NCBI GenBank assembly: GCA_001275005.1
Contig: JWZX01003089.1
Span: 1 to 35,842 of the forward strand
Direction of reading: 5' to 3'
Source of the DNA: Chrysochromulina tobinii
Lineage: Eukaryota
DNA length: 35,842 nucleotides
Shown one piece after another: positions 4,663 to 33,330 of the stretch. The translations under genes were made by a program, and so were the position numbers. Below the pieces are notes generated by a model, which was not told the origin of the DNA, did no database searches, and worked only from the letters and a program-made list of their open reading frames with translations. Positions within the stretch are counted from its first letter, which is position 1; every line of letters begins with the position of its first letter.

Positions 4663-7049
4663 ATGGCGCCGCACGACCTCTTCCCACCGCTTCCGTTCGT
4701 GACCTCGCTCGAGGGCATTGGCGGTTGCATCAAGGCGAGCGCGAGCGACTTTTGCGTCACCGAAGTTGGGGACCCGTCTGAGCCGTGTGCGGATGGCAAG
4801 CATGCTCACGTGACGCTTACGCGCTCGGATCTGAACACGCGCGACGTGCAGCAGCGCCTCGCCAAACTCTTTTCGGTGCAGGTCGACGAGATCGGCGTCG
4901 CGGGACTCAAGGACCGCACCGCGCGCGTCACGCAGACCTTCAGCCTGCCGCGAGAACGTTTACCCAAGGAGTTGCGCACGACCGAGTCGACGGCGCAGAT
5001 CGCGGCGATGCTGAGGGAGAGCGCGGGCGCGAATGGATGGGTCGCCCCCGCCGAAGAGCCATCCTGGCACCGCTCCAAGCTCAAGAAAGGTCATCTGGTG
5101 GGCAACCGGTTCGAGATCATCATCTCGCAGGTGAGGGCCTCTGATGGCCTCGGATGACCTCTGATTTCCTGTGATGACCTCTGATGGCCTCCGATCGACT
5201 GCGAAATCCTCGTCTCGCAGTGCGCCGTGCCGCCCGAAGTGGCAGTGGCCCGCGCACACGCGATCGCCGACGAGCTACGATCTCGCGGCGGCTGGCCCAA
5301 TTACTATGGGCCGCAGGCATGCTGCAAGCCTGATTGCGCCTGATTGAGCCTGATTGCGCCCAATTACTATGGGCCGCAGGCATGCTGCGAGCCTGATTGC
5401 GCCTGAGTGTGCCTGATTGCGCCTGATTGCGCCTGATTGCGCCTGAGTGTGCCTTCCCCAATTACTACGGGACGCAGCGCTTCGGGCATGGAGGCACCTC
5501 CGCCACTAATTGCCTCTAATTGCCACTGATTGCCGCAGCGCTTCGGGCATGGAGGCTCCTCCGCCACCCGAGGCCGTGGGATCCTATTTGAACGCTTGAG
5601 GGTGCGACCGCCGTGGGGTTGGGTCGAGGGCAGCGAAGGCGGCGGCGGCGGAAAGGCCGAGGGCGAGGGCGGCGAGGGCGCTGTGTTGGGCGGCGTGAGC
5701 GCTGTGTTGGGCGGCGGAGAGGCCGAGGGCGAGGGCGGCGAGGGCGGCGAGGGTGCCGAGGCCAAAGGCGGCGGTGGCGGCGGTGGCGGCGGCGGCGGCG
5801 GCGAGCGCCCCACCAAGCGCCAGAAACGGAAGCGGCGTGCGCCTTGGCTGGATGCGCTCTACCTCTCCGCGTTCCAGTCATCGATGTTCAACGCTTGGCT
5901 TGCGGAGAGGGTGTCTCGCGGGCTGCTGGGCACGTTGCTCTGTGGGGATCTGGTCTCGTTCCCACAGGTGAGCCTGATGGCAAGCATGCTGAAGAGTGCC
6001 TGCGCGAGTCCATGCTGATGGCCGCCCTGTGGGGATTTGGCCTCGTGCCCATGACGGCGCCTCCGCCCTGTGGGGATTTGGTCTCGTGCCCACAGTCTGC
6101 TGCCAAGCCACGCCTCATCAAGCCGCCAGCTGGCAAGGCTTCATCAAGCCTCATCAAGCCTCATCAGCAAGGCCATCAAGCCTCATCAAGCCTCATCCAG
6201 CCGCCAGCTGGCAAGCTGGCAGCGGGAGCTGACGCCGAGATTGCGGGAGCTGACGCCGAGACTGGCGGCAAGGGCGAAGCGGAGATTGAGGTGTTGGGGA
6301 GCAGCGCGGAGATCAAGGGAGATCAGGGGAGCAGCGCCGAGATCAGGTCTGAGGTCAAGGCTGCCGTTGCTACCGGTACCGGCACCTTCTCGAGTGCGGA
6401 CTGGAGCGCTACACCGAGCGCGGAGGACTTGGCCGACTTCGCGAGGGGTCTCATCACGCTTACGGGGCCCATGTACTAGGGAGCATTGCCCTGATGGTCC
6501 TCTGATTGCTGTTCTCATCACGCTCACGGGGCCCATGTACTAGGGAGTCCCTGATGGTCCTCTGGTTGCTGTCTGACTGCGGTCTGATTGCGGTCTGGTT
6601 GCGGTCTGATGCTGTCTGATTGCCTCACTGAGTGCCTCAGGTACGGCGGCCAGATGGCACGGCCGTTTGGATCTCCCGCTGAGCTCGAGGCGGAGATTTG
6701 GGCGATCCACGCGCCCGGTCTGATGACCGACGCCATCAAGCCCTCGCTACTGCAAGGCGGTCGTCGTGTGGCGAAGCTACCAGTCCCTGAGGACCTGACC
6801 ATCGAAGCTCACGTACCCTCCGGCGGCGTCCGGTTCACCTTCTCGCTACCTGCCGGCGCATACGCCACCACGTTCCTGCGTGAGTTCGTACGAGCCCAGG
6901 ACGACGCTCTGCACGTAGGGATGGTTGGCGCTGAAGGCGCTGGAGGTGCGGGCGGGTCGGGCGGGTCGGGTGGGCAGGTGCCCGGCGGCGGCGATGGCGA
7001 GGCGGAGGACGACGAGGATGTGCTGTTCGCCAGCGCAGATGCATGCTGA
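4663..7049 (+). CDS. PUS7: TruD/PUS7-family pseudouridine synthase; exons 4663-5130, 5221-5316, 5539-5967, 6096-6472, 6641-7049 (possible extra intron 6138-6215)
   Basis: Motifs DFCVTEV, AGLKDRTARVTQ (catalytic Asp), GHLVGNRFEI, NYYGPQ|RFG (restored by splicing), SAFQSSMFN, TGPM|YG and FSLPAGAYATTFLREF. GT/GC-AG boundaries keep the frame. Confidence 0.9.
5131..5220 (+). other. GT-AG intron with 10-mer repeats; its 3' end copies the upstream exon end
   Basis: Exon end GAGATCATCATCTCGCAG (5113-5130) versus intron end GAAATCCTCGTCTCGCAG (5203-5220). Filler consists of TGATGGCCTC-like units. Confidence 0.85.
5317..5538 (+). other. GC-AG intron with (GCCTGATTGC)n and internal exon copies
   Basis: CAG|GCATGC donor. 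Removing the intron restores the TruD NYYGPQRFG motif. Exon copies lie at ~5359-5388 and ~5457-5506. Confidence 0.8.
5968..6095 (+). other. GT-AG intron containing two copies of the upstream exon end
   Basis: CTGTGGGGATCTGGTCTCGTTCCCACAG (5940-5967) recurs at ~6027-6051 and 6068-6095. The second copy supplies the AG. Confidence 0.85.
6473..6640 (+). other. GT-AG intron with a duplicated exon/donor segment and 10-mer repeats
   Basis: ~6450-6483 is repeated at ~6512-6546, followed by GGTCTGATTG-like units. Splicing gives TGPMYGGQM. Confidence 0.85.
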
Positions 7050-7422
7050 ACGCCCCTGAGCCCTGGGCCAACGTCACTCACCACAGTAGAGAGTCCCTAC
7101 CTTTTGAACCTTTGGCGTTGCCAGCCTTAGTCTTGGTGGGACGTCGGGTGCCGTCGGGTCGCGTACACGTTGGCAACGTCACTTTCCTACAGATGGATAC
7201 TCTTCGTGAACGATCCTCCACGCTCTGCCTCGTGTAACATTACATGCTGGACTGGCGCACTGGCCAGGAAAACGTATGAATCGTTATAGTACGTCGAGTA
7301 TTCAATATTTAATTGAGCTAACGTCAAACGTGTTCGCGCGCAATGCCAATGGCGGTTGGCGCACAATCGCACAGTTGACAGTTCTTCCACCCACATGGTC
7401 TGCAAACCAGTAAACCAGGACT

Positions 7423-7562
7423 CTAGGAGGTAGGAGCCAATGAATGCGCCCCCGCACTGAGGCTTGTGAGGCAGGAATGCAGCTCTATTGATATCTTTGA
7501 GGAGCAGCCAGAGAAGGCACCATCACCTAGGCTCGTGAGGCCGGTGGGCAGCTCAATCGGCA
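7423..7562 (-). pseudogene. Out-of-frame relic BspA-type LRR units downstream of the LRR gene
   Basis: IELPTGLTSLGDGAFSGCSSKISIEL lies in a different frame from the 7553-9535 CDS. Confidence 0.6.
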
Positions 7563-9535
7563 TAAACTGCCGGTACAAAGCAAAGGACGGCACTGGGAGG
7601 CACTTGGGCAAACCTGAGAATGCTTTCATCAAAGCCAGCAGGCAGCTCAATTGACATCAACGAGGAGCAGCCACCGAAGGCCCACTTACCGATGCTTGTG
7701 AGGCCGGCAGGCAGCGCGATTGATGCCAACGAGGAACAGCCACAGAAGGCGCTCTCACTGAGGCTCGTGAGGCCAGCGGGCAGCTCAATCGACGTCATCG
7801 AGGAGCAGCCAGAGAAGGCGCGCACACCGATGCTCGTGAGGCCGGCGGGAAGCTCGATCGACGTCAACGAGGAGCAGCCATAGAAGGCGTTCACACCGAT
7901 GCTCGTGAGGCCAGCGGGCAGCTCAATTGACGTCAATGAGGAGCAGCCCTCGAAGGCGCCATTGCCAAGGCTTGTGAGGCCAGCGGGCAGCTCGATCGAT
8001 GCCAACGAGGAGCAGCCACGGAAGGCGCTCACACCGAGGCTCGTGAGGCCGGCGGGAAGCTCGATCGACGTCAACGAGGAGCAGCCATAGAAGGCGTTCA
8101 CACCGATGCTCGTGAGGCCGGCAGGCAGCTCGATTGACGTCATCGAGGAGCAGCTAGCAAAGGCGCTACTCCCGAGGCTCGTGAGGCCAGCGGGCAGCGC
8201 GATCGACATCATCGAGGAGCAGTGAACGAAGGCAAAAGCACCGAGGCTCGTGAGGCCGGCGGGCAGCTGGATCGACGTCATCGAGGAGCAGCCATAGAAG
8301 GCGCCCTTACCAAGGCTCGTGAGGCCGGCGGGCAGCTCGATCGACATCAATGAGGAGCAGTCATTGAAGGCGTACTCACCGATGCTCGTGAGGCCGGTGG
8401 GCAGCTCGATCGACGTCATCGAGGAGCAGCCCCAGAAGGCGTCATCACCGATGCTCGTGAGGCCGGCGGGCAGCGCGATCGACGTCATCGATGTGTCATC
8501 ACGGAACGCGCCCGCCGGCACGCGCGCCTCACCGTTGCGCAGCGCGCACGCGGCGAGCAGCACCTCCATCGGCGCCTCGCCCTCGCCGCGGATGCACGCG
8601 CGCACCCCTGCCATCGGATACGGCTGCGTACCATCTTCATATTCTTCCGATACATCCGATGACGCCACGCGCCTCAGCGCGGCCACATCCACCTCGAAGC
8701 CGCCCAGCCCCGTCACCTTTGCCAGGCTGGGCAGCCAGCGCAATGCGTCGACCGCGTCCGCGAAGAGGCGACCGGCGGCGCGGCTGCCCGAGAGGTCGAG
8801 CTCAGTCACCTCGACGAGGTTGCTCGTGAGCGGCAGGCCGACGCGTGCGCACAGCCGCGCGCACAGGACGCGCCGCGCCCGCGCGCGCCACGCTAGGCTC
8901 ACGCTCTTGAGCGCGCGCAGCGTCGGCATGTCGGCGTCCGCGAGGGCGTCCTCGAGGGCGTCCTCGTTGACGAGCTGCGCCGAGAACCAGCACACGGTGG
9001 CTGGCGGTGTGGGTGCGTCGGCCGCTCGCGGTGCAGTGGCGTCGTGCTGAGCGTCTTGCATGTACAGCGGCTCCTCCGTCGCCGCCTGCCGCTCCGCCTC
9101 GGTGGGGAAGTCGCTCACGACGCCCAGCAGCCGCCCGAGCTCCGGGCCACTCTTGCCGGCGAGGTGGCCGGTGCACAGGGAACGCGAGAGGCTTCGGAGA
9201 ATCTCGACGTCCACGTCGAGAAAGTGCGCGCCATGCAACAGCTGCGCGAGCTGCGCGAGCGAGCACCCATCCAGCGCCCCGCCCTCTTCCGCACCGCCCT
9301 CGGCGACCCGCGAGAGCGTGCGGAGCGCAGCCGCAGGCACCAGAGTGGCGAACGCCCCCTCGGCGCCGCCCGTGTCGCTCACCCAGTTGGCGAGCGCCGC
9401 CGATCGCGCCGCGGCCGAACGGGACCACGCGACCACCTCGCCCTCGGCGCTTCGCACCCTCACATCGTCGCCGTCGCCGCCGTTGACGTCGCCGCCGCCG
9501 CTGTCACCGCCGCCGCCGATCCGACGTCGCTTCAT
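7553..9535 (-). CDS. Skp1-like domain, F-box-like motif and 13 BspA-type (LRR_5) leucine-rich repeats; intronless
   Basis: ATG at 9535 (MKRRR). Skp1 signatures: VRVRSAEGEV, LLHGAHFLDV and LAGKSGPELGRLLGVVSDFPTEAE. F-box-like NEDALEDAL...TLRALKSVSLAWR. 23-aa repeats of the form LPAGLTSxGxxAFxGCSSLxSIE. Confidence 0.85.
   Translation of the reverse strand: MKRRRIGGGGDSGGGDVNGGDGDDVRVRSAEGEVVAWSRSAAARSAALANWVSDTGGAEGAFATLVPAAALRTLSRVAEGGAEEGGALDGCSLAQLAQLLHGAHFLDVDVEILRSLSRSLCTGHLAGKSGPELGRLLGVVSDFPTEAERQAATEEPLYMQDAQHDATAPRAADAPTPPATVCWFSAQLVNEDALEDALADADMPTLRALKSVSLAWRARARRVLCARLCARVGLPLTSNLVEVTELDLSGSRAAGRLFADAVDALRWLPSLAKVTGLGGFEVDVAALRRVASSDVSEEYEDGTQPYPMAGVRACIRGEGEAPMEVLLAACALRNGEARVPAGAFRDDTSMTSIALPAGLTSIGDDAFWGCSSMTSIELPTGLTSIGEYAFNDCSSLMSIELPAGLTSLGKGAFYGCSSMTSIQLPAGLTSLGAFAFVHCSSMMSIALPAGLTSLGSSAFASCSSMTSIELPAGLTSIGVNAFYGCSSLTSIELPAGLTSLGVSAFRGCSSLASIELPAGLTSLGNGAFEGCSSLTSIELPAGLTSIGVNAFYGCSSLTSIELPAGLTSIGVRAFSGCSSMTSIELPAGLTSLSESAFCGCSSLASIALPAGLTSIGKWAFGGCSSLMSIELPAGFDESILRFAQVPPSAVLCFVPAVYAD
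7630..8520 (-). repeat. 69-bp coding tandem array (BspA LRR units)
   Basis: GCTCGTGAGGCC...GCAGCTCGATCGACGTCA..GAGGAGCAG recurs every 69 nt. Confidence 0.95.
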
Positions 9536-9850
9536 GCACGCTCCTGTCCTTGTGAATTGGTGATCTGGTGTTAATACTCGGTCTGGGGGAAAGCGTGTGA
9601 AACTGTGATTTGAGGTTCCGTCCGGGGTTCCTGTCCTCGCTCGTGGTCGTGCGGTCGTGGCGCACGTTTTTCCCCACGAACATTCGCTGTTCTTTGAGAA
9701 AGGGTCAGTTGAATCGACACACAAGGTACCGACCAGCCACTACCACGCAAAACACTGCCACGCAGTGGTCGCGTCGCTCGGTGGACTAACACACCGGCGA
9801 GGATTTTCAAGGATCCGGCCCCCACCCCCCGTCCCAGCCACACTACATCT

Positions 9851-9937
9851 ATGGGCTTACTTGTTAACAGTGAAACAGGACACAGTGGAGACCAGCAACC
9901 GATGGGCTTTATTGTTAACAGTGAAACAAGACACAGC
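9851..9937. repeat. ~35-bp direct repeat upstream of the Skp1-F-box-LRR gene
   Basis: ATGGGCTT..TTGTTAACAGTGAAACA(G/A)GACACAG occurs at ~9851 and ~9902. Confidence 0.7.
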
Positions 9938-10714: not shown

Positions 10715-11389
10715 TCAACAGCTGTGCTCAATAGTTGCCTCGTCCGCGGCCTGGCCCGCCTCGCCGGCCGCGGCGAGTGCCCCACGCATCGGATCCGTCG
10801 ATTGTCCAGGCGCGGGCAATGGTGCGGGCGATGGTGAGGGCGTCTCGGGCGCGGGCGCGGGCGCCCTGTCGTCCAGCCACAGCTCCAGTATGAGGCAGTC
10901 GTGATCGAGCGCGCCGTCATGATCGTGTGTTACGGCGCCTGCGTCGCTCGGCAGCAGCCCAGCCCGCCGACGATCGAGCACAGCCCGCCGCCGATCGTAC
11001 ATGCGGAAGCGACGGGGCCGCCGCGCTGTGAGCGGCGAGCCCGCCTTTTTATAAAACAGCACGTGGTCCACGTTGCGCTGGGGGGCGCGGTTGTCGGTGC
11101 CGTAGCGCCGCCGGCCCGCCCACAGCGCGACTTCCTGCGGCGACCACTTCTGCTTGTTTGCCTGCGTCCGCACACGAGTCGGATGGGGTTTCTCAGTGCG
11201 GCAGCCATCCAGCCGCACGTTTTTATCTGGGTCCAGCCGCTCGAAACCAACATAATCTGCAAGTTCAAGTTGATGCAAATCCAAGTTGAAATCTCCTGCT
11301 AGCACGCAGCCGAGGCAGTCGGCAGATTCATCGCAAGTGTCTCGAAGGTGCTTGCACAGCTCCTTCAAGCACAGTTGGCACGTATCCAA
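10715..11389 (-). pseudogene. C-terminal half of an endonuclease/exonuclease/phosphatase (EEP/APE-like) domain
   Basis: Motifs VLAGDFN, HPT, NVDHVLF and ALDHDCLILEL appear in EEP order. No N-terminal EEP motifs are seen, and upstream frames are broken. Confidence 0.6.
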
Positions 11390-11809
11390 TTTATCTTTGT
11401 GCGGACCATGCCAGGTGACCAGCAGAAAGTGGCTCCGCTGCCGCTCGGCTGCCGCCGCAGCTCCCGCGTGCGGCCAGCGACATCTTCCACTTTGCCTACT
11501 CTTAAGAGGGCATCCCCTTCATCTCCCTTGGCTCCCTTGGCAAGCTTCTTCTTCTTGGCGATCGCCTCATCCTTCAGACGCTTCGCCTCCTCCTTCTTCG
11601 CCTTCGCCGCCGCCTCTTTTTCCGCCTTAGCAGCGGCCACTTTCTCCTCTTCCGCCTTGGTAGAGAGGAAGGAGGACTTCAAAAGGAAAAATGCAGAGAT
11701 CCTGCCAGTTCACCCAACGCTGCCACTCGAGCTCGAGCGATTCGTCCTCGGCCGGGTTCCGCTCGTTGAGGCCCCAGGCGTCCTCCCACGAAGTGGCATC
11801 GGTACCCCC

Positions 11810-12450
11810 CTCGAGAGGTGGCTGCGACGGTGGCGGCTGCGGTGCCCGTGCCGCCATCACGGGTGCATGCTGCTCCGAAGCTCGTGCTTCACGACCTTGA
11901 CCAGCACACAGCCAGCCGCCTATCTTGGCCGAAGAGCTCTGGAGCTGCTCCACCGTGGCACTGCCGATTGGGAGCAGATGGAAGTCCTCGAAGTTGCGGA
12001 GCGCCGTCGCGAGCTCGCCCTCAGTATACTCCGGGGGTGCCCTCAGTATCGCCCTCAGTATACTCCGGGGGCCTCGGCCACTGAAACCTTCACCCTGAGC
12101 GGGCGCGGGAGCGGGCGGATAACTTGGCATCCCCCCCGAGCGGGCGCTGCTCGACATCTCTTGGTACGCCTCGGCAGCGATGTGAGCTGCCATGTTATCT
12201 GCCGCGATATCCGCAGCGAGCACGCCGTACTCGATGCCGGCGTCGTGTGGGCCAGGGGCGGTCGGCATGAATGATCGTTCCCTGTAGACAAGTGTAAAGC
12301 CTTTGGCTGTTGAGTCCGTCATGACAGCACGTTCGTCGGCGGCAGCGATGTGAGCTGCCATGTTATCTGCCGCGATATCCGCAGCGAGCACGCCGTACTG
12401 GATGCCGGCGTCATGTGGGCCAGGGGCGGTCGGCATGAATGATCGTTGCT
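11810..12450 (-). repeat. Paralogous copies of the PARP-OTU gene linker modules within a chimeric ORF (11627-12436)
   Basis: 11818-11939 is near-identical to 15656-15777 (SSSAKIGGWL..EQHAPVMAARAPQPPPSQP). 12172-12445 repeats 15919-16140 (PTAPGxHDAGIEYGVLAAD..DERAVMTDSTAxGFTLVYRE). Confidence 0.9.
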
Positions 12451-13030: not shown

Positions 13031-16000
13031 AGTGGGGCACCCTCAGTTGGCTCGCTGCTGAAGCCGCCGCCTGCAGCTCCGGCAGCATCACCAAACGACG
13101 CCGGCGCGTCGCTGAAGCCACTGCTTACCGCACCGAAGCCACTGTCATCACCGCCGAAACTGATGTCACCACTGCCGAAGCCGCCATCTGCGCTGCTGAA
13201 GCCGCCATCTGCGCTGCTGAAGCCGCCATCTGCGCTGCTGAAGCCGCCGTCGGTGCTGCCGAAGCCGCCGTCGGTGCTGCCGAAGCCACCGTCGCCATCG
13301 CCGTCGCCACCGTCAAAGCCGCAGTCTGCAGCTCCTGCAGCATCACCAAACGACGCTGGTGCATCGCCACCGCCGAAGCCGCTATCCTCATCGCCGAAGC
13401 CGCCGTCTGCGCTGCCAAAGCCGCCGTCGTCACCGCCGAAGCCGCTGTCCCCATCGCCGAAGCCGCCGTCTGCGCTGCCAAAGCCGCCGTCGTCACCGCC
13501 GAAGCCGCTGTCCCCATCGCCGAAGCCGCCGTCTGCGCTGCCAAAGCCGCCGTCGTCACCGCCGAAGCCGCTATCCCCATCGCCAAAGCCGCCGTTGGCA
13601 CCACCGAAGCCGCCAACTGCGCTGCCGAGGCCGCCGTAGGAGAGGCCACTGGCCACTTTGAGTGGGCTGGACGTCCTTGATGGCGGGGTTGGCAGTTTGG
13701 TGAGCACATCAGCATACGTGGGGCTCCGTCTGCCGGGCGGGGTTGTGGCAACGATCACGGCCGGGCGGGGGAGTGGGGGAGCGACTAGCGATGGTGTGGC
13801 CGGTAGTGGGGCGGGGGCCGACAGAATCGCGTCGACCTCAGCCTCAATCTCGCAGCGACGATCCAGTGACGGCACGCCGCCGACCGGGCTGCTGTCGCCT
13901 GTGGACGACTGGAAGGCAAGGAAGCCCACCTGTGGGGAGGGAGGGCGCCGTGGTGAGCACTTGCATGCAGGCTGCTGTCTCCATTAGACGACAGGAAGGC
14001 GAGGACACCCACCTGCTTCGGCGCTCTGTCATGGCGCCGTCGTGTCGGCTTCTCGGGTTTCGAAGAGGGTTCGGCAGGACGCTCGGCCGGACGCGACAAC
14101 TCAACAGAGCCAATCTCCGCGCCGCGCCACGCCCTTTTTGGATCCACCGACGGCGTGAACGGAGGGGGACGAAATGGCTGCGCCTTGAAGGACTGCTCGC
14201 GCGTGGGCGGACCAGGTGGCTGAGCCGACCACGCGCTGCTCAAGTGGCTGAGGCCTGTCTCCGGCGAACCGGCTGCCGACTGGGCCACGGACATCGCTGG
14301 GGAGAAGGAGACGGGAGGTTGCCTCGACAACTCCGGGTACTCGACAGCGGGCGCAGTTGGGCGACCATCCGCGCTGAGGACGTTCGCGACCGTCGCGTCT
14401 ATCTGCTGCTGCAGCACCCCGATCTCGGCCGTGAGCTGCGAGAGCCCCAAGTGCAACGGCGCCACCTGCTTCGACTCTACATGCGCCTGCTGCAGCAGCA
14501 GCGCCTGCGATTGCTTGAGCGCGCGCACCTCTTCACGCGCCGTGCTGAGCGCCCGGTTGAGCGCGTGCGCCTCGTCAAGCTGGGAAGCCATCCTCGTCTG
14601 CACCGCGGTCACCTCCCTCGCCAGCGCCTCGAGCTCTTGTGTGGCCGAATGCAGCTCGTGCTGCTTCTCGCGCAGTGTGCCCGCATACGAGTCGCATTGG
14701 CCTCGGAGGGACGCGAGTCGGCGCAGGCACCACTCATGCTCCTTGGCGACCGCCGCGCGCTGCTGCTCGGTCGCCGCGATGCGCAGCTTGAGCTCCTCTG
14801 CTTCGCGATGGCGTGCGGCCACGTGCACCGACACAGCCTGGAGGGCCCCCTTGGAGTCCCCGAGCTCGCGCACACGCCCCTCGAGCTCAATCGCTTGGAG
14901 CTGTATCTCGCCCGAGCTCGCTCGCTCCAGCGCGTCCCTCGCCGAGGCATGGTCGGCGCGGAGCGTAAGCTTTCCCTCTCCGACGAGTTTATGACGAATC
15001 TCGAGCGTTCTTTTCCATGCTCGGCACAATCGACGGGCTGCCCAGTGGGCCGCAAACGCTTCAAGCAAAAGCGGCTTGAACTGCCTAACGTGCAGAAGAT
15101 GCCGAAGGTTGTATGCATGCCCAAAGAAGATAAGCCCCATTTTGGGTGGCGGCAGCTCCGGTCTGGGTAGGCCCCCACGCGCGATGGGCGCTGGACCCAT
15201 TCGCTCCAGAACGAAGTAGTGCTGTGCCGCTTGGTCGTGAGCCATGCATACGTCGCGTGTCTCATCGTTGCGTATCAGCGGCGCGAAAGTTCTATCGTGA
15301 TCTTCGGACCGGCCGTATACCCTGATGCGCACGTTGAAGGTTTTGGCCGCCGCCATGAGTTCGATTTCACCCTCGACGTACGTGCCCTCTATTGAAGTGT
15401 TGTCGACATACGAGTCAAAGTCTTTGTAGTTGATATCAGAGTAAATGTGCACAAACTGCTCGAACTCTTCGCGGTGCTCACGCATGTACCGAATGGTCTC
15501 TTGGCGCGCGCGACCGTGCAGCTGTTCGTCCCCATCCACCTGCTTCGCAAGCGCACGGAAGAAGCAGTTGCCGTCACCGACCACGTCCACTCGCTGCCAA
15601 CCGTCGGCTTGGAGAGCATCGAGGCGACGACTCAGCTCGGTATCCCCCTCAGAATGTGGCTGCGACGGTGGCGGCTGCGGTGCCCGTGCCGCCATCACGG
15701 GTGCATGCTGCTCCGAAGCTCGTGCTTCACGACCTTGACCAGCCCGCAGCCAGCCGCCTATCTTGGCCGAAGAGCTCGAGGCCGGCACCACTGATGGTTG
15801 CCGAGAGTCTGCCTCGGAAGCGTTCATGGAAGGCAGCCGGGAGGGCGAGAAATCTGGCCACGCGTTCTGCTGCTGCTCTTGATAAGGGAGAATGGTGGCC
15901 TCGGACGAGCCGACCAGGGTAAAGCCTTCGGCTGTTGAGTCCGTCATGACAGCATGTTCGTCGGCGGCAGCGATGTGTAGAGCTGCCATGTTATCTGCCG

Positions 16001-18470
16001 CGCTATCCGCAGCGAGCACGCCGTACTCGATGCCGGCGTCGTGTGCGCCAGGGGCGGTGGGCGGCGGCATGAATGATTGCTCTCTGTAGACAAGTGTAAA
16101 GCCTTCGGCTGTTGAGTCCGTCATGACAGCACGTTCGTCGTCCATGTCCAAACGGCCGATGCAGTTGCGCACATCCTCTTCGAATTTGGGATCGGTCGAA
16201 TCCTGTGGAAGCGTGTCCGCACGGGTGTACACTCCGTTAGGAAAGGCGAAGAGGAAGCGCGTGACGACGGCGTTCTCCTCGGGCGCCACCCAGATGGCTT
16301 GTGTCTTCCTGAGCGAGGGCACCTGCGCCACCTCGCATAGCGCCAAGAGATTGAGCTCGCTGCCTGCGAGGAAGGCATTTCCGCCCGCGGCGGCGCCGGC
16401 GGAAATGGCGGCGGCGGCGGATGCGGATACTACCCCGCCGGCGGCGGCGGAAAATACCCCGGATCTGCGCATGGCGAATCCCAAAGACATAATGGCGCTC
16501 GTCGAGAGGTAGACGCCTGCGCCGTACGCCGCGCCCGTGGTCATGAGCTTCGTGTTCGACAGGTTGCGAAGCCCCGTGCGCAAAATCGAGTGCCAATTCT
16601 CTGAGCTTGAGCCGTGCCATGCGAACTTGGAGCCATGCTGCCGCTTGAGCTCCTCGAAGGCCGCCTGCCGTTCGGGCGGTGCCGAGAGCATCACAAACTG
16701 ATGGCGTGTGCCCAGCGACGCGAGCTTGAGCGCCTCGGGCACGGAGACAAGGTGGGCGCGATTCGAACTGACGATCCACTCAAACAGGCCGAGGGCCAGC
16801 GGGTGCTGTGCGTCCATGAGCCTCCGAAGCCCCTCTGTCCCGTCTCCATACGCCGCCGCGTTGATGCGCTCGAAGGCAGGGAATCTCCCGAGGATCTCGC
16901 GTGTCAACGGCAAATTGGGCTTCTCGGGATCGAGGGCGAGCACCGACGAGCCGCGCTGTGCCGGCACCCACGGCATGGGCGTCAGGATATCGGCAGCCCG
17001 CGCCGAGGTCGCAGCCAGCGTGGTGGTGGCAATAAGAAGGTCGAGCACCTCTGCATGCGCCACCATGCGCCACCATGCCTCGCCGACGAGCAGCCTGCCA
17101 AAATTGGCAAACTGGTGCTTGCACAGTGGCCGTTGGCACACCGTCGGTTGGAGCATCGCGCCAAACGGATGCGGCTCGTCGCAGATGGCGCAGTAGGCGT
17201 TGAGCGATCGCAGCCGACTGATGACGTACGAGATGGTTGCTGGCGCCGGGCGAACGAAGTCGAGAGCCTCCTCGCGCGCTCTGTGCCGGCTGTCCATGCG
17301 ACGCGGCATCACGCTCGTGAGGCTTGCATGGCTGCCACTGCTGCTGCCACCGTATTCCAATGCTGCCAGTGCTGCTGCCGCCGAGCAGTCCGCAGGCGAG
17401 ACTGCGCCCAAGGAGGCGACACTGCGCCAAACTCGAGCTGCCACCGCCGAGAGATTGGATCTTTCCTTCTGAGATTGGATCTGAGATTGGATCTGAGATG
17501 CGGTGGATCCAATCTCAGATCCAATCTCGAGATTGGATCTTTCCTTCTTGATGACAAGCTCTTCGCCGCCGCGCATCGCTTCTGCAGCAAGAGCCTCCCA
17601 AAAGACTTGGATGATGCGTAGCAGCTGTTGCGCGACGATGCAACCGTCGTCGTTCGCCGCGATTGCCGTGCCATCCTCGCCACGACCCGGGTGCCACAGC
17701 GTCGCCTTGTCGATGCGCCGACTCTCGTACGCCGCGCTGTCCTCAAAGGACAGGGTGAGCTGAAGCGTGCTGTGCAGGCCCCACGCGGTGCACACATCCC
17801 TCGGGATCACCTTGAACGGCTCAAAGATGAAGTGGAGTACCTGAGGCGCCGAGAGACCGTCCAGCCGCGTGAAAGTCACGCTGCCCTCGCCGAACAGCTC
17901 GTGGCAAAGCCGCACATCGTCGTCCATGTTGTCGGTGGCCACATCGCCCGACAGGAGGCCAAGTTGTACCTCATCCTCCGCATCCGACGCATCTGACACC
18001 TGATCGGACTGCTGCGAACTCTTCGTGTCGGCGGTGCCACTCCTGCGTGGCGCCAAGTAGCGCTTCTCCTCGCACATCTCACAGCGTAGCAGCGCAACAA
18101 GCCCCTCGGTGCTGTGCTCGTGCCCGCAATTTTCGCACGTCCACGGTGTGGGGGCCGTCGTCGGAGGCGGCATAGGCGGCGCCCCTTCGGCTGGGGGCAG
18201 TGCCATCACTGGGCTACACCGCCTCCTGACTGCCCTGACATGGGCGTCGGCGTCCCCGGTTTCGTACGTGTCGTCGTCATCTGTCACGAACGTCTTCTTG
18301 TCCCACTCCTCCTTCTGCAGCGCCAGGGCGAGACCCTCATCGATGAGGGCGAGGCTACTGCCTAGAGATGCACGTCCAGCATTTGGCGGCTGATCCATGC
18401 ATGCAAGAAGCTCGCTCTCGACCTCAAAGTCGACTTCTTCTGAGGCGGCTCGAGCGCGGGGGATGGCCAT
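13021..18470 (-). CDS. Multidomain protein (~1788 aa): ubiquitin-binding-like helix, RanBP2/NZF zinc finger, PARP6/8-like ADP-ribosyltransferase, OTU deubiquitinase, coiled coil and Gly/Asp/Phe repeats; exons 18470-14013, 13929-13021
   Basis: DEGLALALQKEE; WTCENC..RCEMC; YCAICDEPH..PTVCQRPLC (PARP6/8 Cys-rich); FAWHGSSSENWHSILRTGL..GAGVYLS..ALCEV..IWVAP..VVTRFLF; VGDGNCFFRAL..GEIELMAAA..QHYFVL. The phase-0 intron 13930-14012 joins PKQ|VGF. Confidence 0.8.
13100..13620 (-). repeat. Coding low-complexity array (21/63-nt units; DGGFGSA/GDGDSGFG)
   Basis: GAAGCCGCC units repeat with 21-nt periodicity. Confidence 0.9.
13930..14012 (-). other. GT-AG intron made of a copy of the downstream exon start plus a shared 3'-splice-site cassette
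   Basis: Intron start GTGGGTGTCCTCGCCTTCCTGTCGTCTAATGGAGACAGCAGCC resembles exon start GTGGGCTTCCTTGCCTTCCAGTCGTCCACAGGCGACAGCAGCC. The intron ends TGCATGCAAGTGCTCACCACGGCGCCCTCCCTCCCCACAG. Confidence 0.85.
17451..17548. repeat. 78-nt in-frame insertion: 20-bp direct repeat around an inverted (GAGATTGGATCT)n hairpin
   Basis: GAGATTGGATCTTTCCTTCT occurs at 17451 and 17529. The interior GAGATTGGAT units face ATCCAATCTC units. Confidence 0.85.
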
Positions 18471-26306: not shown

Positions 26307-26485
26307 TGGTTTTGGACGCCCTCGTGAACGGAAGAAAGACACTCGTTCCTGGAGAGGGCCGTCTGGTCGCGTGCTTTCGCGACCCATTGTGTGTCCGCGT
26401 GTTCACACTCGAGCGAACTTGGCCGACGGTGGCGCCGAGCGAAGGGTGCGAGTTCGTGTGCGTGCAGCTCCCTTCTGAGGCTGAG

Positions 26486-27142: not shown

Positions 27143-27667
27143 GCAGCGGCGTGGACGGCGCCCGGCCGGCTCGACTAATGATATGGCCATAGCTCGTGTT
27201 GTCAGAAACGTCTTGTCATAACAGTGACACTCGAGCGCGCGCTCAACGTTCCGTGTATGTTCGCAAGTATCTGGGCCGTTGCTTTAGTTGCGGTACATTG
27301 ACCTACATGCTTCTCCTAAAAGGTGGCTAGTATACTCGCCAGCGCGCTCTTCCGCGCTCGACGCGTCGCAAACGTACCGGAAACCGCCGACGTGAACGTC
27401 AATCGTCGCACGCTCGGCGCACGCCGCACCCTCACCCGTCGTCACCCGGCGCGAGGCCACGACTCCGCTTGGACCCGCCAGTCGGACCTGTACGCCTCTC
27501 CCCATCTCGCACTCGTCGCCCGACGCACCTCTGGCGGCCTCAACAATGCCTCAACTCTCCGTCCAAAGGTCATGCTGTCGGTAGTCGTGACATTTGGGTC
27601 GCGCGGGGCTCGCGAGCGGCGGCGGGGACTCCCCGCCGTGTCTGACGAAGGGGACTCGCGCGCCCAT

Positions 27668-30600
27668 CTACGCGGGTGTAGCGCCTGCACCCGCACCGCC
27701 ACTCCCACACGCGGCCTGGGCGCCGCCCTGGGCGCCGCGGCGCATGTAGATGAGCACATACGCTGCAGGGGTGATGATCGAGCTCACGTCTTCCACGAGG
27801 CTTGTGTGCGAGTCGTCAAACTTGTACCAGTCGCCCGAGAGGCTGTTCTTGGCGAATGCTGTGTAGTGCCCGCCTCCAGTCGAGCCATAGTGGTTCGAGC
27901 ATGCGATCAAGTCATAGAGGTACGCGTCGGTCGTCGAGCCATTGGCGCCGCGGCGGGCACTCGGGTGCACCACGTGGGCCGCCAAGTCCAATTCCAAGGG
28001 AAAACGGACGGGCGTGTCGTTCTTACGCCGCCACTGGTTCCCGGAGAAGCGCTTCAGTTGCATCACGAGGACGTCGGGTAGGGACCAGAACTGCGCCAGC
28101 CGCATACACGGGGGAGTGAGGGGAGAATGGGGTGCATGTGGGGAGATTGGGGAGCATGTGGGGAGATTGGGGCGCAACGGCACACGACGTGCGCACGCAC
28201 GTGTGCATGCATGTGAGCACGGCTACATGCACGCGAGCACGGCCGCACGCACGCGAGCACGGCCGCACGCACGCGTTCGCGCACGCACGCACGCACCTCG
28301 ATCTTCTTGGACGCTTCGCGATGTTCCTTGCACTGAGGGCAGTACCATGCATTGTCGGCATCCAAGGTCTCCTCGCGAGAGAAGAGTTCGAGACACTGCA
28401 AGAGGTCGACGCCCACGGCGGCGCCGTTCTTTTCCGACGGAGGCTTGTGGCCCGCTTGGATCCCGTACCTGTGGGGAGAGGGCGCCGTGGTGAGCACTTG
28501 CATGCGTGCAGGGGCGGAGGCTTGTGGCCCGCTTGGATCCCGAACCTGTGGTTGGCGTCGCCGGCGCCAAGCGCGCCTTCGAGCTTCGCCTTGTCGTAGG
28601 ATCCCAACGGCTCGAAGGCTTCGGGTAACCATTCGAGGACGACGTGCCTGGTCTCGGGAGGGGGCGCGTCGTCGCGGGCGGCCAGGCTGCTTGTGCCGCC
28701 GCCGCCGGCGACGGGGCGAGAGGTGCCGCTGCTGCCACCGCCGCTGCTGCTGCCGCCGCTGCTGCTGCCGCCGCTCGCGAGCGTGGCTGCGCTGCTGCTG
28801 CAGTCGCACCGGTTGGTGCTGCTTCCTAATTTGGGCGCGCCGAACTCGCACAGCGCGCTGGTGCACGGGATGACAGCACCCATCGGTTCCTGCCCTAGCT
28901 GGCCCACTGTCATCGACGTATAGCGTAGCCGCCACTGCGCGCCGCGCGCGAGCGGCGCGGCGGGCGGCTGATCGGCGCCGACCTTGGCGCCATCGTCTCC
29001 GGTGGAAATGCCGTTGGACTCCTCCTCCAGAGGCGCCGTATCGGGCGCCTCGTGCGGCGGGGGCGCCTCTGCATCGGCCTGGCCACCCCGCAGCTGGGCG
29101 GCGACGAGGGCGTACAAGGCCTCACCGCTCGTCGTCCACGAAACCGCGAAGGCGAGGGGCGTTCCCATGAACTTGACTTGCCCATAGCCCGTGCCTGTCG
29201 GAGAGGCTCGTTGCGGCGCGCGCTGCGGGCAGATGAGCACGAGCGGTGCGGCGTCTGCCTCGGCTTCGTCAATCCCGTCGAGGTGCACCTGCGAGATGAT
29301 GAGGGAGGCAATTAGGGGAGTCATCAGGTGCAATCAGAGCGCACAGATCCCGTCGAGGCGCGCGCACACCTGCCAGATGACGATGACGTCGCTGTCGTGG
29401 ATCAGCTCGAGCTTAGACTGCGGGCTGAAGAGCTTGTGCAGCTTCGAGCCGTACACCTCGGCGCACACGAGGGAGGTCGGCACGAGCGCCGGCGCACTCG
29501 GGTCGACCGCCCGCGCCTCGACCGCGACCGCCGTGAAGAGATCCTTCACAGCACCCGCGAGGGGCACGGTGACACGCAGCACTGTGAAGGAGCCGTCGTA
29601 ACGGCGCAGCGTGAGCGAGAGTCGGCGAGTGTCCTCCGGCTGCAACGGCACCGCCACGCTCATGAACGAGTCGAAGGTGACGCTCACCTGAGGAGGGAAG
29701 CCATCACGGAGGGTCATTCGTGGCAATCGTCCGAGGGTCATTAGTGGCAATCATCCGAGGGTCTTACTGACGCTCGTGAAGAACGAGTCCGAGCCCACAC
29801 TCAACTCAAGTCAAGTCAAGTCAAGTCCGAGCCCACACTCACCTTGCTGCACAGCGGGCAGATGACCGTCGATTTGAAGTATCCCTCGAAGAGGTCCGCC
29901 ACGTAGGAGTCGTTGCGCAGCTTGTGACGGCGTGTGACCTCGCGCGCAATCTCGACGTCGGGCTCGGTGCCCTTCGCTTCGAAAGTTTCCACGTACGGCT
30001 TCTTGCGCACGCGGTTCGTATCCTCATGCAGCTTGTCCAACACGTAGTTGCACAGCTCCTGGGAGTCCTGCTGTCCGTAGCCCGCAAACTGCGGCGCGAA
30101 GCGTCCGAGCACATGCTCGTCGGCAATCCATGGCAATCCATGGCAATCCATGGTAATCCATGGCAATCTATGGCAATCCATGGCAATCCATGGCAATCCA
30201 TGGCAATCCATGGCAATCAATGGCAATCCATGGCAATCAATGGTAATCAGTGGCAATCAATGGTAATCAATGGTAATCACCTGCGGCGCGAAGCGTCCGA
30301 GCACGTGCTTGAAGTTGCGCGGCGAGACGGTGGTGGCGGCTCCGCCCCACATGAGCTTGAGCAGCGCCGCGAACGAGCGAGCGAGCTCGCCATTGGCACC
30401 GAGCGGGTTGTCCTCGTTGAGGTCGACGAGGTAGCCGTCGTCGAGGAACCTCGCGCGGAGCATGGGCACGTTGGAGAGGCACTGGAGCATGGAGTTCATG
30501 AAGCACGTGTTGCCCAGATTGGAGAGGCCGACGACACCGTCGAGCGCCGGCTTCGTGCTGTCGACGACCCTATCCTCGTCTCTGCTGCTGCTGCCGCGCC

Positions 30601-31510
30601 CGCTGCCGCCACCGCCATGCCCATGTCCCGTCGCCGCGGCTGTGCTCGACGAGGAGCCGCTGACGCCGTCGAAGAGGTCCATGCTGCCACCGCTCGCGTC
30701 GTCACCGTTGCTCACGTCCGAGAAGCGCCAGCTGCCGTCGGCCTGCTGCACCTCGACGAGCACATCCTGAGCGGGCATCAGATTCGTCTCCATTAGGCTC
30801 TTGCTCGTGTCCGAGAGCTGTGTGTACCGTTTCTTCTTGTAGTAGTCCCACAGGCGCACCTTGTCGAGGCCAGGCAGCGCCCAGATGGCGACCATCTTCT
30901 CGAGCAGCGCGTGCACGGAGGCACTCTTGCTCATGTGCAGAACATACTCGCCGCTCGCCTTGGCCTTGTGTGTGGCGGAGTCGCTCTGCAGGTGTACGAC
31001 GAGCTTGAGCAGCGTGAGTTCGAGGAGCACCTCGGGCTTCGAGTAGGCGCCGCCGCCCTCGGCCAGCGCTATCCTGCGGATGGTGGGGCCGCCGCCATAC
31101 CATTCGACAAGCTTGCTCCAGGCGGCCTCGCCGAGCACCTTGAAGTCCGAGCCCTCTCGCAGACCCTCGCGCAGCAGGTACTCGGTCGCATCCTCGTCAT
31201 CCACCAGCAGGTCGCTCGTGACAATTTGACCGGGCGCATCACCACCGCTGCTGGTCGGATCCCAGTTCGAGTATGCGGCCCATTGCGTCCACCAGCTGCG
31301 AGCGAGAGATGCAGGCGCATGCGCAACGGGTCAGTGCGTCCAGACAGCAGGAGGTGACAGAGTGTGGCTGCCTGCGCCGCACCTCTGCGGCACGAGGTAG
31401 TAGAGCCTGTTGGCCTGGAGCGGCTCATTATCGGCGTGCAGAGCTTTTATCAGCTCCTTCTGCGCGGCGGGCCCCGGTGGCGAGCCAATAGTGTCGCTGA
31501 GAGGAGCCAT
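27668..31510 (-). CDS. USP4/11/15-type ubiquitin-specific protease (DUSP-UBL-USP); exons 31510-31383, 31295-30281, 30088-29843, 29687-29370, 29288-28546, 28468-28297, 28090-27668
   Basis: DUSP ([21 protein letters not shown]), Cys box [52 protein letters not shown], His box [20 protein letters not shown]. Six GT-AG introns. Confidence 0.92.
28091..28296 (-). other. GT-AG intron with (GTGC)n and 10-mer repeats
   Basis: KKIE|FWSLP junction. GCAC repeats and GGGAGATTGG/GGGAGCATGT units on the + strand. Confidence 0.85.
28469..28545 (-). other. GT-AG intron made of a ~31-nt copy of the downstream exon plus the shared 3'-splice-site cassette
   Basis: GTTCGGGATCCAAGCGGGCCACAAGCCTCCG versus exon GTACGGGATCCAAGCGGGCCACAAGCCTCCG. 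The intron ends GCATGCAAGTGCTCACCACGGCGCCCTCTCCCCACAG. Confidence 0.88.
29289..29369 (-). other. GT-AG intron with a partial copy of the downstream exon
   Basis: CCTCGACGGGAT is present in both the intron 5' part and the next exon. TGATTGC-type filler. Confidence 0.82.
29688..29842 (-). other. GT-AG intron with a degenerate exon copy, (TTGAC)n and 10-mer repeats
   Basis: CSK|VSVTFD junction. GTGAG..GACTCGTTC..GAGCGT in the intron resembles the exon start. Confidence 0.82.
30089..30280 (-). other. GT-AG intron with a (CCATGGATTG)n decamer array; its 3' end copies the upstream exon end
   Basis: CA(C/T)GTGCTCGGACGCTTCGCGCCGCAG is at both the exon end and the intron end, separated by a long decamer array (~30120-30280). 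Confidence 0.9.
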
Positions 31511-31624
31511 CTTCTTCGAGGTGTGAAAGCAACACGAGAAGGGGGGAGCCGGCTAGCAAGGCTAGGGCGCATTTTTTGACGCGCAAAACGCCTTCACACC
31601 GTGAAGCGATTCTCTTCTCACGAA
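31511..31624. promoter_or_regulatory. 114-bp divergent promoter region between the USP and BPNT-like genes
   Basis: Head-to-head ATGs at 31510 (-) and 31625 (+). Confidence 0.5.
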
Positions 31625-33330
31625 ATGGGCGGCGCGTGGCGCGTGGCGAGGCTCGTCCTTCTCGGCCTCGTACCTCTTCCCGGCGGCGCGGCGGCGGCGG
31701 CGCTTCTGCCGAGTGCGCCAGGCACGCTGCGGAGAAGGGCAGCGCCAGGGTCAGTGCAAATGGCCAGCGATGACCGACCCATTAGCGCGCTTCTGGACGT
31801 GGCGCTCACCGCGTGCCAGGACATGACCGAGCTCATAGAGGCCGTCTACAAGCAGCTCAACACAAAAGAGCCGGGCGCGAGTGTGCTGAAGGAGGACAAG
31901 TCGTTCTTCTCGCTAGCCGACGGCGTCGTGCAGGTGAGCGTAAGCGCGGCTGGCAGCCTCGGCCTCGGCCGGCGCGCCCCGAATGATTAATCCATTGACG
32001 AACGATTCCGAATTCTTGTTGCGGACAAATGCACACGGATGCTGACGGAGGCTCTGCAAGGCGCGGCGCACAGGCAGCGTGCGAGCCCAGCGAGCCCGAC
32101 CCGCGTGCTGCCACTCGCGTTCGCGCGCGCAGGCACTGCTCATGCGGCTGCTCCGTGGGCGCGTGGGCGCCGTCGTGGGCGAAGAGGACGAGGCATCGAT
32201 CAGTATCGAAGGCGACGGTCCGTTCCGCGCAGCTGAGATCGAGGCGCCCGCGGCGCTCGAGCCGATGATCATCAAGCTGCGCGCGCGCATGGATGCCCTC
32301 GCGAGCACCATCCCGCCTTCGGAGACGCTTGCCGCACTCACGGCCTTCATCGACCCGATCGACGGCACACGAGAGTTTTGCACCGAGCTGGGAGAGCAAT
32401 GCTCGATCTGCGTGGGCTTTGCCGATGGGGCTGGCCAGGCCGTGGGCGGCCTCGTCTACCGGCCCCTCTGCGCGCAACGCTCGTGGGCGCTTGGCTGCCA
32501 ACGTGAGGGCACGTGCCGGAGCGAGCTCCGAACGCCCGAGACGGCGCTCCGCACGCCCGAGACGGCGCTCCGAACGCCCGAGACGGCGCTTCGAGCGCCC
32601 GAGACGGCGCTCCGCACACCCGAGACGGCGCCGGACGTGGGCGCCTTTTTGTGCAGCAATGGCGGCACGAGCCGCTTCCTTCAGGCAGTGCAGGCAGAGC
32701 TCGGGTACGCCACGTTCCCATTGATTACCCTTGTGTACCCTTGAGTACCCTTGAGTACCCTTGAGTACCCTTGTGTACCCTTGTGTACCCTTGAGTACCC
32801 TTGAGTACCCTTGAGTACCATTGATTACCCTTGATTACCCTTGATTACCCTTCCGCAGGTACGCCACGTACCCAGCGGGCGGCGCGGGCAATAAAGCCCT
32901 CCTAGTCCTCGAGCTGCCCACAGCGGTCTACATACAGGATCGAGGAGTCAGTAGATGGGATTCCTGCGCGGCGCAGGCGGTGCTTGAGGCGCACGGCGGC
33001 GTCTTCTCGCGCCTTGATACGGTAGCTGCTCCCGCGCCCGACGCGCCGGCGTCCGAGGCTTCCGATACCACGATCGCCGCCGCCTCCCTTGCGCGCTACA
33101 CGTACGCAAAGGGTTCCGTCAACTCGGTCTTCGTGCCTCTGCAGAGCATGCTGACCAAGTACAATGCGCGGCCGGGCGTGCCTACGGGCGGCCTAGCCGC
33201 CTCGGCCGAGCAGTTCAAGCCGTACGCGAACGTGTGCGGCCTCTTTGCTCTCTCGGCAGCGGCGGACACGGCGAGCATCGCGGCGGCTGTGCGGCGCGTC
33301 GCGAGAGAGGTGCCGCCAAGCTACGATTGA
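31625..33330 (+). CDS. Inositol monophosphatase/3'(2'),5'-bisphosphate nucleotidase (BPNT/CysQ) family protein, probably plastid-targeted; exons 31625-31933, 32133-32704, 32859-33330
   Basis: KEDKSFFSLAD..VQ|AL, VVGEE, FIDPIDGTREF, GGAGNK, WDSCAAQAVLEAHGG. The hydrophobic N-terminus is followed by an Arg/Ala-rich segment ending VQMA. Confidence 0.85.
32526..32630 (+). repeat. 21-nt coding tandem repeat x5 (LRTPETA)
   Basis: CTCCGAACGCCCGAGACGGCG-like units. Confidence 0.9.
32705..32858 (+). other. GT-AG intron: copy of the downstream exon start plus a (TTGAGTACCC)n decamer array
   Basis: Intron start GTACGCCACGTTCCCA versus exon start GTACGCCACGTACCCA. Confidence 0.9.

Follow-up and report, generated by a model that had tools for sequence, protein, structure and literature searches.

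Duplication-flanked introns of Chrysochromulina tobinii and their possible origin from existing introns

The window, a 35,842-nucleotide contig of Chrysochromulina tobinii (JWZX01003089.1), contains 13 modelled introns: four in a TruD pseudouridine synthase gene, one in a PARP-OTU gene, six in USP, and two in BPNT (Table 1). Once the introns are removed, the open frames are 592 aa for TruD, 1790 aa for PARP-OTU, 450 aa for BPNT, and 696 codons for the 3′ part of USP. RNA contigs were compared over positions 27400–30470 (three RNA runs and one DNA run); as a result, the junctions of TruD, PARP-OTU, BPNT, and U1 rest on reading frames and homologues.

Table 1. Introns, exonic duplications, and filler module in the window
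Feature	Position	Strand	Organization	Basis
TruD gene	4663..7049	+	5 exons	Pfam TruD; open spliced frame; junctions agree with transcript P0070
TruD T1	5131..5220	+	Own GT donor, decamer array, then 19-nt diverged copy of previous exon end giving CAG	Shuffle score, sequence
TruD T2	5317..5538	+	GC-AG intron; nested events, decamers between copies	Shuffle score, sequence
TruD T3	5968..6095	+	31-nt copy of previous exon end at 3′ end; second, older copy internal	Shuffle score, sequence
TruD exonic event	6123..6215	+	In frame; 15-nt duplication flanking antisense decamers read as codons	Sequence and frame
TruD second exonic event	6296..6337	+	In frame; 12-nt duplication flanking antisense decamer-like units	Sequence
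TruD T4	6473..6640	+	Internal 30-nt copy (exon end and donor); first 4 nt match next exon start	Shuffle score
PARP-OTU intron	13930..14012	-	43-nt next-exon copy giving GT; core module giving branch-point-like motif and AG	Pfam PARP and OTU; shuffle score
PARP-OTU exonic duplication	17461..17560	-	In frame; filler built from the duplicated stretch itself, copied in direct and inverted orientation	Sequence reading
USP U6	28091..28296	-	No exon copy; internal control	Spliced in RNA; p = 0.73
USP U5	28469..28545	-	31-nt next-exon copy and module	Spliced in RNA
Module copy in U5	28469..28505	-	24-nt core (28482–28505) and pyrimidine tail ending CCCCACAG	Contig depth, edges
USP U4	29289..29369	-	Next-exon copy at start, previous-exon copy at end, decamers in the middle	Shuffle score
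USP U3	29688..29842	-	Gapped old next-exon copy; pentamer and decamer filler	Copy not significant, p = 0.13
USP U2	30089..30280	-	Donor of G plus first decamer; ~16 decamer units; 29-nt previous-exon copy ending CAG	Shuffle score
USP U1	31296..31382	-	No exon copy; modelled only	Shuffle score, frame
BPNT B1	31934..32132	+	No exon copy; position common to relatives (old intron)	Comparison with relatives
BPNT B2	32705..32858	+	16-nt next-exon copy giving GT; 13 decamer units; missing in relatives	Sequence, relatives

The original prediction was that 10 of the 13 introns contain a copy of an adjacent exon. When each intron was scored against 300 dinucleotide-shuffled exons (with five boundaries one base off from the final models), a significant match to a flanking exon was found in nine (p ≤ 0.007), and the tenth, U3, is weak (p = 0.13). 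U4 is the weakest of the nine because its score of 12.5 is below the 14 of the best match to an unrelated exon. By the same scoring, no copy is detected in U1, U6, and B1 (p = 0.16–0.73). The copy was also predicted to supply a splice site in most cases. This holds, at the predicted coordinates, for T1, T3, U2, U5, B2, and the PARP-OTU intron, but not for T2 and T4, in which the long copies are internal and the duplication at the splice sites is merely 4–7 nt. Inside T2, the end of the previous exon is present twice, together with a copy of ~49 nt that runs across the uninterrupted exon-exon junction.

U5 is found spliced in all three RNA runs and not in the DNA run, and the copy-free U6 behaves in the same way. 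A spliced joint of U3 occurs in one of the three RNA runs, with a side of 23 nt, and no joint of U2 or U4 was found among the RNA contigs of these runs. Precise splicing is thus seen for two of the duplication introns, U5 and U3, and the other eight are without an RNA joint. At U4, contigs from one RNA run end at the intron edges and one low-depth contig is unspliced, a weak observation. It is unlikely that the duplications are an assembly artefact, because most copies have diverged from their templates and DNA runs support the stretch: of all words in the USP stretch, 96% are present across 14 DNA runs, and a single contig of run X10, which may be the window's own source, covers 28780–30151 with zero differences.

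Duplication introns occur in two mirror forms. Form A opens with a next-exon duplicate whose initial GT or GC serves as donor; a core, a pyrimidine tail, and CAG provide the acceptor. In form B, donor and branch point come from the filler, and the AG comes from the end of the previous-exon duplicate. Two types of filler occur: arrays of decamers, and a high-copy module with branch point and acceptor. The earlier description of a remainder made mainly of decamers does not apply to two of the ten introns, the PARP-OTU intron and U5, which have none and share instead a module of ~38 nt. It consists of a 24-nt core, in which CTCAC resembles a branch point, and a pyrimidine tail ending CCCCACAG. 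The summed DNA contig depth of the module in U5 is ~43,800 versus 36 in the unique flanks, and its edges are sharp.

The statistics on duplications and fillers come from 547 kb of related contigs that were picked by exact core match, a choice that biases toward form A and young copies. The core is present in this set at 236 unique sites in 129 loci, and ~1300 stretches are estimated across the collection. It is sharp-edged on both sides, its 5′ half is kept in 138 of 148 non-exact copies, and its orientation relative to the GT/GC target is consistent (73/79). What follows the core is a tail, a previous-exon copy, or almost nothing; the fillers have no common termini, and the ends of decamer fillers are not fixed. 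There appears to be no master copy, because 148 distinct tails occur among 170 sites, and the 19 perfect duplications of at least 20 nt, all with a complete module inside, have 19 distinct tails. A longer cassette, complete with donor, was matched 15 times, 11 of them directly after AG. Neighbouring cores lie in the same rather than opposite orientation by 63:5, and arrays relative to cores by 148:7. Neither terminal inverted or direct repeats nor poly(A) were seen in the fillers, and no terminal repeats around the core; hairpins of the module are weak (4 bp), and the predicted lack of terminal inverted repeats is thus upheld. No RNA from which the module could derive turned up in Rfam, and a suspected similarity between its reverse complement and the SRP RNA 5′ end was not borne out. 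The core was met at one locus only in three scans of viral contigs and at none in prokaryote genome contigs, and no transposon source was identified in the sequences examined. The decamers could be a tail of the retro-copy kind.

The duplications vary between ~12 and 53 nt, and roughly half of an intron is particular to its site. The excess over controls, as predicted, extends beyond the window. Direct repeats surround 104 of 141 isolated cores (95 of the 236 are non-isolated and were left out) versus 0.9% in permutations, and 83 of 168 decamer arrays (76 of 244 were left out as lacking 100-nt flanks or being duplicated) versus 2.6%; random positions of the same loci give 5.5–8%. Among the 83 duplication-flanked array events, 36 are unspliceable on their own. 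Pure tandem duplication, with both splice sites given by the duplicate and no foreign filler, does not describe these introns; U4 comes nearest but also has filler.

Recent intron gain is supported, in agreement with the expectation that such introns are missing in relatives or polymorphic. The BPNT relatives retain the duplication-free B1 and lack the duplicated B2. Locus L051 has an 81-nt intron, composed of a 34-nt perfect duplication and a module, and its allele L009, 1.7% diverged, has neither part. This is the one clean presence/absence intron in nine allele pairs, and the difference could conceivably reflect exact intron loss. A TruD relative, P0071 (four members on contigs of 2.1–4.5 kb, which may not be genomic), shows no interruption at any of the four intron positions. 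For USP, a protein search with a middle exon returned no match. Secondary events within existing introns are common (T2, T4, L057 versus L026). In L057, one local unit has become three by iterative stuttering; the number of units also differs between alleles, and stuttering may therefore not occur at insertion.

Judging from shared variants, the filler is mostly copied from existing introns, often nearby ones, and not made afresh. The original prediction of a different but related decamer at each locus is right as to the related vocabulary, but the units are mostly not local inventions. A non-consensus core variant is common to 60 of 202 same-locus pairs (250–5000 nt apart) versus 998 of 7323 pairs between loci, and a permutation test, run like the other donor tests after removal of 16–19 redundant or allelic loci, gives 39/124 versus 19.4 (p = 0.0002). 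For 19 of 89 young fillers (5.8 expected), the match to a site of the same locus more than 250 nt away is better than in every control. Identity of at least 8 nt upstream of the core is found in 6 of 132 same-locus pairs versus 17 of 17,423. Bases of a neighbouring intron's exon copy that have hitch-hiked with the module can be recognized by eye in L031 (2.5 kb away, 5-nt microhomology), L042 (1.7 kb, 5-nt microhomology), and L028 (1.9 kb). The new intron of L051 resembles the intron 524 nt downstream, with microhomologies of 2 and 4 nt. The traced donors have the same orientation and lie 0.5–2.5 kb away; a hitch-hiked flank of 24 nt ties together two different contigs (L042/L045), and opposite-strand cores within one locus also share variants (9/28). 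A nearby source with junction microhomology was found in a minority of events, and a donor within 6 kb is missing for most. Mean module similarity of neighbours is not above background (p = 0.17), the rank test on cores of young events is not significant (p = 0.35), and the automatic test of donor direction is clear in one pair only. Sharing of variants between neighbours could also come from later gene conversion.

We lean toward the view that repair of staggered breaks with template switching copies part of an existing intron, and that the duplicated target gives the other splice site. Repair of a staggered break (or stalled fork) would take as its new template an existing intron, in many cases no more than a few kilobases away, copy part of it, and then return upstream. 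Individual donor-recipient pairs suggest that the switch points are microhomologies of 2–5 nt, AG/GT itself among them; the alignment at AG/GT can be explained by selection alone. Selection would retain spliceable events and a few in-frame ones, and repeated events at one site would lengthen old introns. The polymerase might be a theta-like end-joining enzyme, and the template DNA or nascent RNA. Each new intron would be a template for the next, and the vocabulary would therefore spread and drift without a master copy. A broader reading is held tentatively: intron gain may be transposon-free and self-feeding, with repair copying intron halves and new introns becoming donors, and the intron vocabulary of the lineage (core and 10-nt repeats) may be its selfish product. 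If so, donor-recipient chains should be legible within single genes.

Two features sit uneasily with repair copying: the sharp edges of the core and the retention of its 5′ half, which look like a defined element and not random switching. The sharp edges suit the chief alternative, a very short non-autonomous mobile element (introner) centred on the core and moved by a putative HUH-type or non-LTR reverse transcriptase enzyme, which we consider rather unlikely overall. Such an enzyme would have to leave long variable target duplications, hop locally, and carry parental flank ("fuzzy ends"). Target-primed reverse transcription typically leaves long variable duplications, and those seen here would suit it; the very high copy number, the fixed orientation to the target, and the recurring cassette with its own donor also fit. 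Introners are already known in haptophytes (PMC9860276), and PMC10288648 describes variable duplications, dinucleotide targets, and flank carry-over for Replitron-1 and one Replitron locus in a Chrysochromulina genome. Against a mobile element stand fillers without common termini, decamer ends that are not fixed, young copies that all differ, and the lack of terminal repeats and poly(A); no autonomous partner was seen in the sequences examined. Moreover, the exonic duplication of PARP-OTU has the same footprint with purely local templating and none of the shared vocabulary. This local filler and the antisense filler in TruD exons are expected of a general repair process.

Antisense filler in exons likewise speaks against a nascent pre-mRNA as template, in which the broken antisense strand would anneal to the intron end of a transcript of the same gene and be extended by a repair polymerase with reverse transcriptase activity. 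The almost uniform gene-sense orientation of filler and the co-oriented traced donors favour this version, but splicing selection predicts the same orientation bias, and variants shared by opposite-strand cores and a flank spanning different contigs count against it; we regard it as improbable. Least credible, and very improbable, is that plain AG|GT tandem duplication came first, with decamers and modules then invading or growing through slippage and gene conversion, or that old introns secondarily gained exon copies. Secondary events are indeed frequent, many arrays are unspliceable alone, and unit numbers differ between alleles. Yet perfect duplications already hold full filler, the empty L009 allele lacks both parts, the AG of form A comes from the filler so that the duplicate alone has no acceptor, and B2 is wholly missing from the BPNT relatives. 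Templated break repair, as originally proposed, fits better than a classical transposon; iteration is seen as stuttering in L057 but may not happen at insertion. The process may be distinct from introner transposition.

The sequence source of new spliceosomal introns is a long-standing open question, and to our knowledge transposon-derived introners are the sole accepted genome-scale route of intron gain. Introners with target-site duplications are described from lineages that include haptophytes, Chrysochromulina sp. among them (Gozashti et al. 2022, PMC9860276; Roy et al., bioRxiv 10.1101/2020.10.14.339549); the reported duplications are 3–9 nt and fixed per family. As in introners, the insert gives one splice site and the duplicated target the other, and both mirror forms occur; sequence is common to many unrelated introns, orthologous sites differ in presence, and splicing is precise. 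Unlike in introners, the duplications are long and variable and make up half of the intron, inverted repeats and end-to-end identity are absent, several fillers are interchangeable, and donors can be traced to neighbouring introns. The searched part of the PMC9860276 supplement has no core match, and its consensus files or the bioRxiv supplements may include the core family. Cut-and-paste DNA transposons and MITEs have terminal inverted repeats and a fixed duplication of 2–11 nt, neither of which is found here.

Intron gain by staggered double-strand breaks in Daphnia leaves repeats of 4–12 bp, and most insert sources are unknown (PMC4202315; review PMC3443670). In both systems, a direct repeat of the exon end lies across the new intron from the original, and young introns undergo repeated secondary events. 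The repeats here, however, exceed those of Daphnia several-fold in length, and other introns supply the insert as a ready-made cassette of splice signals, so that the process would feed itself. Tandem genomic duplication of AGGT (reviewed in PMC3443670) also turns a duplicated exon stretch into an exact intron; here, a single splice site needs to come from the duplicate, with its counterpart and the branch point contributed by the filler. In Chlamydomonas, Replitron-1 and Helitrons are elements of 0.9–3.6 kb bounded by terminal direct repeats, and they have a Rep transposase (PMC10288648). Replitron-1 shares the variable duplications, an orientation-specific dinucleotide target, and carried-over parental flank, whereas the inserts here are 25–150 nt with termini that are not fixed. 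Small tandem duplications and templated insertions by end joining are described for induced breaks in animal cells (PMC8355091; PMC2943611); staggered-break duplications and junction microhomology, as in polymerase-theta products, are common to both, and a genome-scale intron source with a common splice cassette is not part of those descriptions. No haptophyte paper with such an intron architecture was found in a search mostly confined to papers outside subscription. The Emiliania genome paper is said to report 10–11-bp repeats enriched in introns. Repeats of that type are not mentioned in the accessible parts of PMC2784329 and PMC4580454.

The sources of individual new introns are readable, several down to donor intron and switch point, and the process is still polymorphic; as C. 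tobinii is culturable and both DNA and RNA data exist, a repair route to intron gain is directly testable. Screens for whole-intron similarity would largely miss such introns, because about half of each is local sequence. Annotators should be aware that duplications of this kind mislead splice alignment and assembly.

The window is GC-rich and eukaryotic, and encodes TruD, PARP-OTU, USP and BPNT-like genes (domains from Pfam), with one named BPNT relative coming from the haptophyte Calcidiscus. Its DNA is also present in sequencing runs of mixed cultures; the source is presumably a haptophyte, possibly Chrysochromulina-like to judge by the repeat motifs. The 13 introns of the original prediction were recovered, and their excision restores open frames in agreement with homologues. 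The prediction also placed an exon copy in ten of the 13. In nine of them the match to a flanking exon indeed beats shuffled exons (p≤0.007); the tenth holds a gapped old copy that does not pass this control (p=0.13), and no exon copy was found in three. The TruD intron T2 could alternatively be two introns flanking a 16-nt micro-exon, with the same mRNA, because its internal junction copy holds AG|GC. There are also in-frame exonic events, namely additional ones in TruD that carry antisense decamers, and one in PARP-OTU whose filler consists of inverted copies of its own duplicate.

The intron remainder, thought to be mostly decamers, is of two kinds. Of the ten exon-copy introns, eight hold TGATTGCC-type decamers, in which the branch-point-like words CTGAT and CTAAT occur, but the PARP intron and the USP intron U5 lack decamers and share a ~38-nt module instead, composed of a branch-point-like core and a pyrimidine tail. 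The summed depth of the module in DNA run X10 is ~43,800 against 36 in unique flanks, which is not a copy number; this depth has sharp edges, and the core itself is sharply bounded. From 6 of 64 parts of metagenome contigs, 131 stretches with the 25-nt core were obtained (~1300 estimated overall). The 129 loci analysed (547 kb) comprise metagenome-contig stretches and two viral-collection loci. A pyrimidine tail is present in 105 of 141 isolated cores, ending in CCCCACAG in 83, and is followed by GT in 90 and GC in 7; the duplicate starts with GT or GC in 73/79. Core-bearing introns are 57–123 nt long (median 78). The mirror cassette, which has its own donor, gave 15 matches, 11 preceded by AG, and in several cases a previous-exon copy ending in AG follows. 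Fillers lie in the same orientation as those nearby (63:5 among neighbouring cores, 148:7 for arrays against cores). At five loci (L010, L016, L104, L116, L120) the whole duplicate-plus-module unit runs in tandem around the core match, creating internal AG|GT sites that could conceivably allow recursive splicing.

Direct repeats (score at least 12) flank 104 of 141 isolated cores, compared with 0.9% after flank permutation and 8% of 400 random positions, and measure 12–53 nt. For decamer arrays the figure is 83/168, compared with 2.6% permuted and 5.5–8% at random positions. Of these 83 array events, 47 could be excised as GY..AG when read in sense, and an antisense control gave 25 (p=0.0005); many events are thus secondary, lying within older introns.

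Nine overlapping locus pairs were compared for presence or absence. An 81-nt intron-like insert, a 34-nt perfect duplicate from G|GTGAGT plus module, is present in L051 and missing from L009, the flanks of the two diverging by 1.7%. Inside an intron common to L057 and L026, L057 additionally holds a 94-nt event made of a duplication and decamers, and other pairs differ in unit number. Eight clusters of BPNT relatives were also looked up. At the position of BPNT intron B1 the matches of five (50–67% identical) break off, with a 74-residue insert exactly there that three members read through, whereas all five cross the B2 position uninterrupted; the other three lack both. Copy-free B1 is therefore old, and the simplest reading is that duplicated B2 arose in this lineage. 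All four intron sites are uninterrupted in the TruD relative P0071, which may itself be a transcript. The nearest TruD relative (P0070, 63%) is a transcript catalogued as Gymnodinium smaydae, a dinoflagellate, and possibly stems from haptophyte prey or co-culture.

The junctions for which RNA confirmation had been proposed were borne out in part. Within the USP region compared, RNA contigs skip U5, and likewise copy-free U6, in 3/3 RNA runs and U3 in 1/3, and these joints are absent from the DNA run; U2 and U4 gave no RNA joint there.

A minority of events is copied from neighbouring introns. Mean module similarity of neighbours does not differ significantly from background (p=0.17). Core variants are shared by 60/202 same-locus pairs versus 998/7323 between loci (permutation p=0.0002), and the best match lies in the own locus, beyond 250 nt, for 19 of 89 young fillers (5.8 expected); in a rank test this excess reaches significance for decamers (p=0.001) and not for cores (p=0.35). 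Identity of at least 8 nt upstream of the core occurs in 6/132 same-locus versus 17/17,423 site pairs. Individual cases, read by eye, reveal the direction of copying: an intron in L031 holds 6 nt of exon copy belonging to an intron 2.5 kb upstream, with a 5-nt microhomology joint, and L042 and L028 show the same hitch-hiked pattern over 1.7 kb and 1.9 kb, respectively. The polymorphic L051 intron matches an intron 524 nt downstream including the spacer, with 2- and 4-nt microhomologies, and in L057 one local unit reappears threefold in the insert. One hitch-hiked flank links separate contigs, thus distant donors also exist.

The phenomenon is real and recent: duplication and filler form one footprint, and two such introns are spliced. 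It is rather probable that host repair or template switching copies parts of existing introns. A staggered break or template switch would start the event, microhomology would guide entry into and exit from the template, selection would keep spliceable products, and the vocabulary would propagate itself as each new intron becomes a donor. The junctions resemble templated end joining, and end joining is described as producing small tandem duplications (PMC8355091). Plain duplication with repeats growing later is very improbable; in 19 perfect duplicates of at least 20 nt the complete module is already in place, its tail different in all 19, and 148 tails occur among 170 sites. Duplication and filler arrive as one event, with no master copy.

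The outcome is also introner-like, and a tiny introner moved by an element-encoded enzyme is a less likely alternative. Introners, known in haptophytes, recruit a splice site from 3–9-nt duplications (PMC9860276; bioRxiv 2020.10.14.339549; bioRxiv 2024.06.04.597373), Replitron-1 makes variable duplications with flank carry-over (PMC10288648), and Daphnia gains have 4–12-bp repeats with mostly unknown sources (PMC4202315). In contrast to known introner families, neither end-to-end identity nor short duplications were found here. RNA-templated repair is improbable; RNA filler has been proposed for fungal introns without duplications (PMC8469720). Seven proposed gain routes have been reviewed (PMC3443670), and a literature search of incomplete coverage found no description of this combination. 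It is apparently undescribed, with a reasonable likelihood that it represents a separate route of intron gain that needs no transposon.

Coordinates of introns, compared regions and side observations (window positions unless a locus is named)
Feature	Position	Observation
T2	5317-5538	
PARP intron	13930-14012	
U5	28469-28545	
USP region of RNA comparison	27400-30470	
Viral-collection contig, phage-like	L001 2760-3060	Terminates in duplication, decamers and core module; either chimeric end or host junction
1141-codon open frame	1046-4471 (+) and 65-1299	RNase H-like region, no Pfam hit; adjoins inverted, internally deleted self-copy (97-98%); probably retroelement remnant; no link to intron filler seen
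BspA-type leucine-rich-repeat gene	7556-9739	Close relative (95%) on another contig, L057 1-1003
PARP-OTU pieces	11799-12447 vs 15637-16140	Recur in rearranged form at a distance of 3.6-3.8 kb, as duplicates of about 90-155 nt with 79-98% identity
Unannotated frame	10715-11518	Adjoins rearranged PARP-OTU pieces
BPNT coding repeat	32525-32631	21 nt, five times; relatives lack it
BPNT tandem	33300-33501	Five 99%-identical 40-nt copies including stop codon; filler-free duplication, unit size similar to intron duplicates
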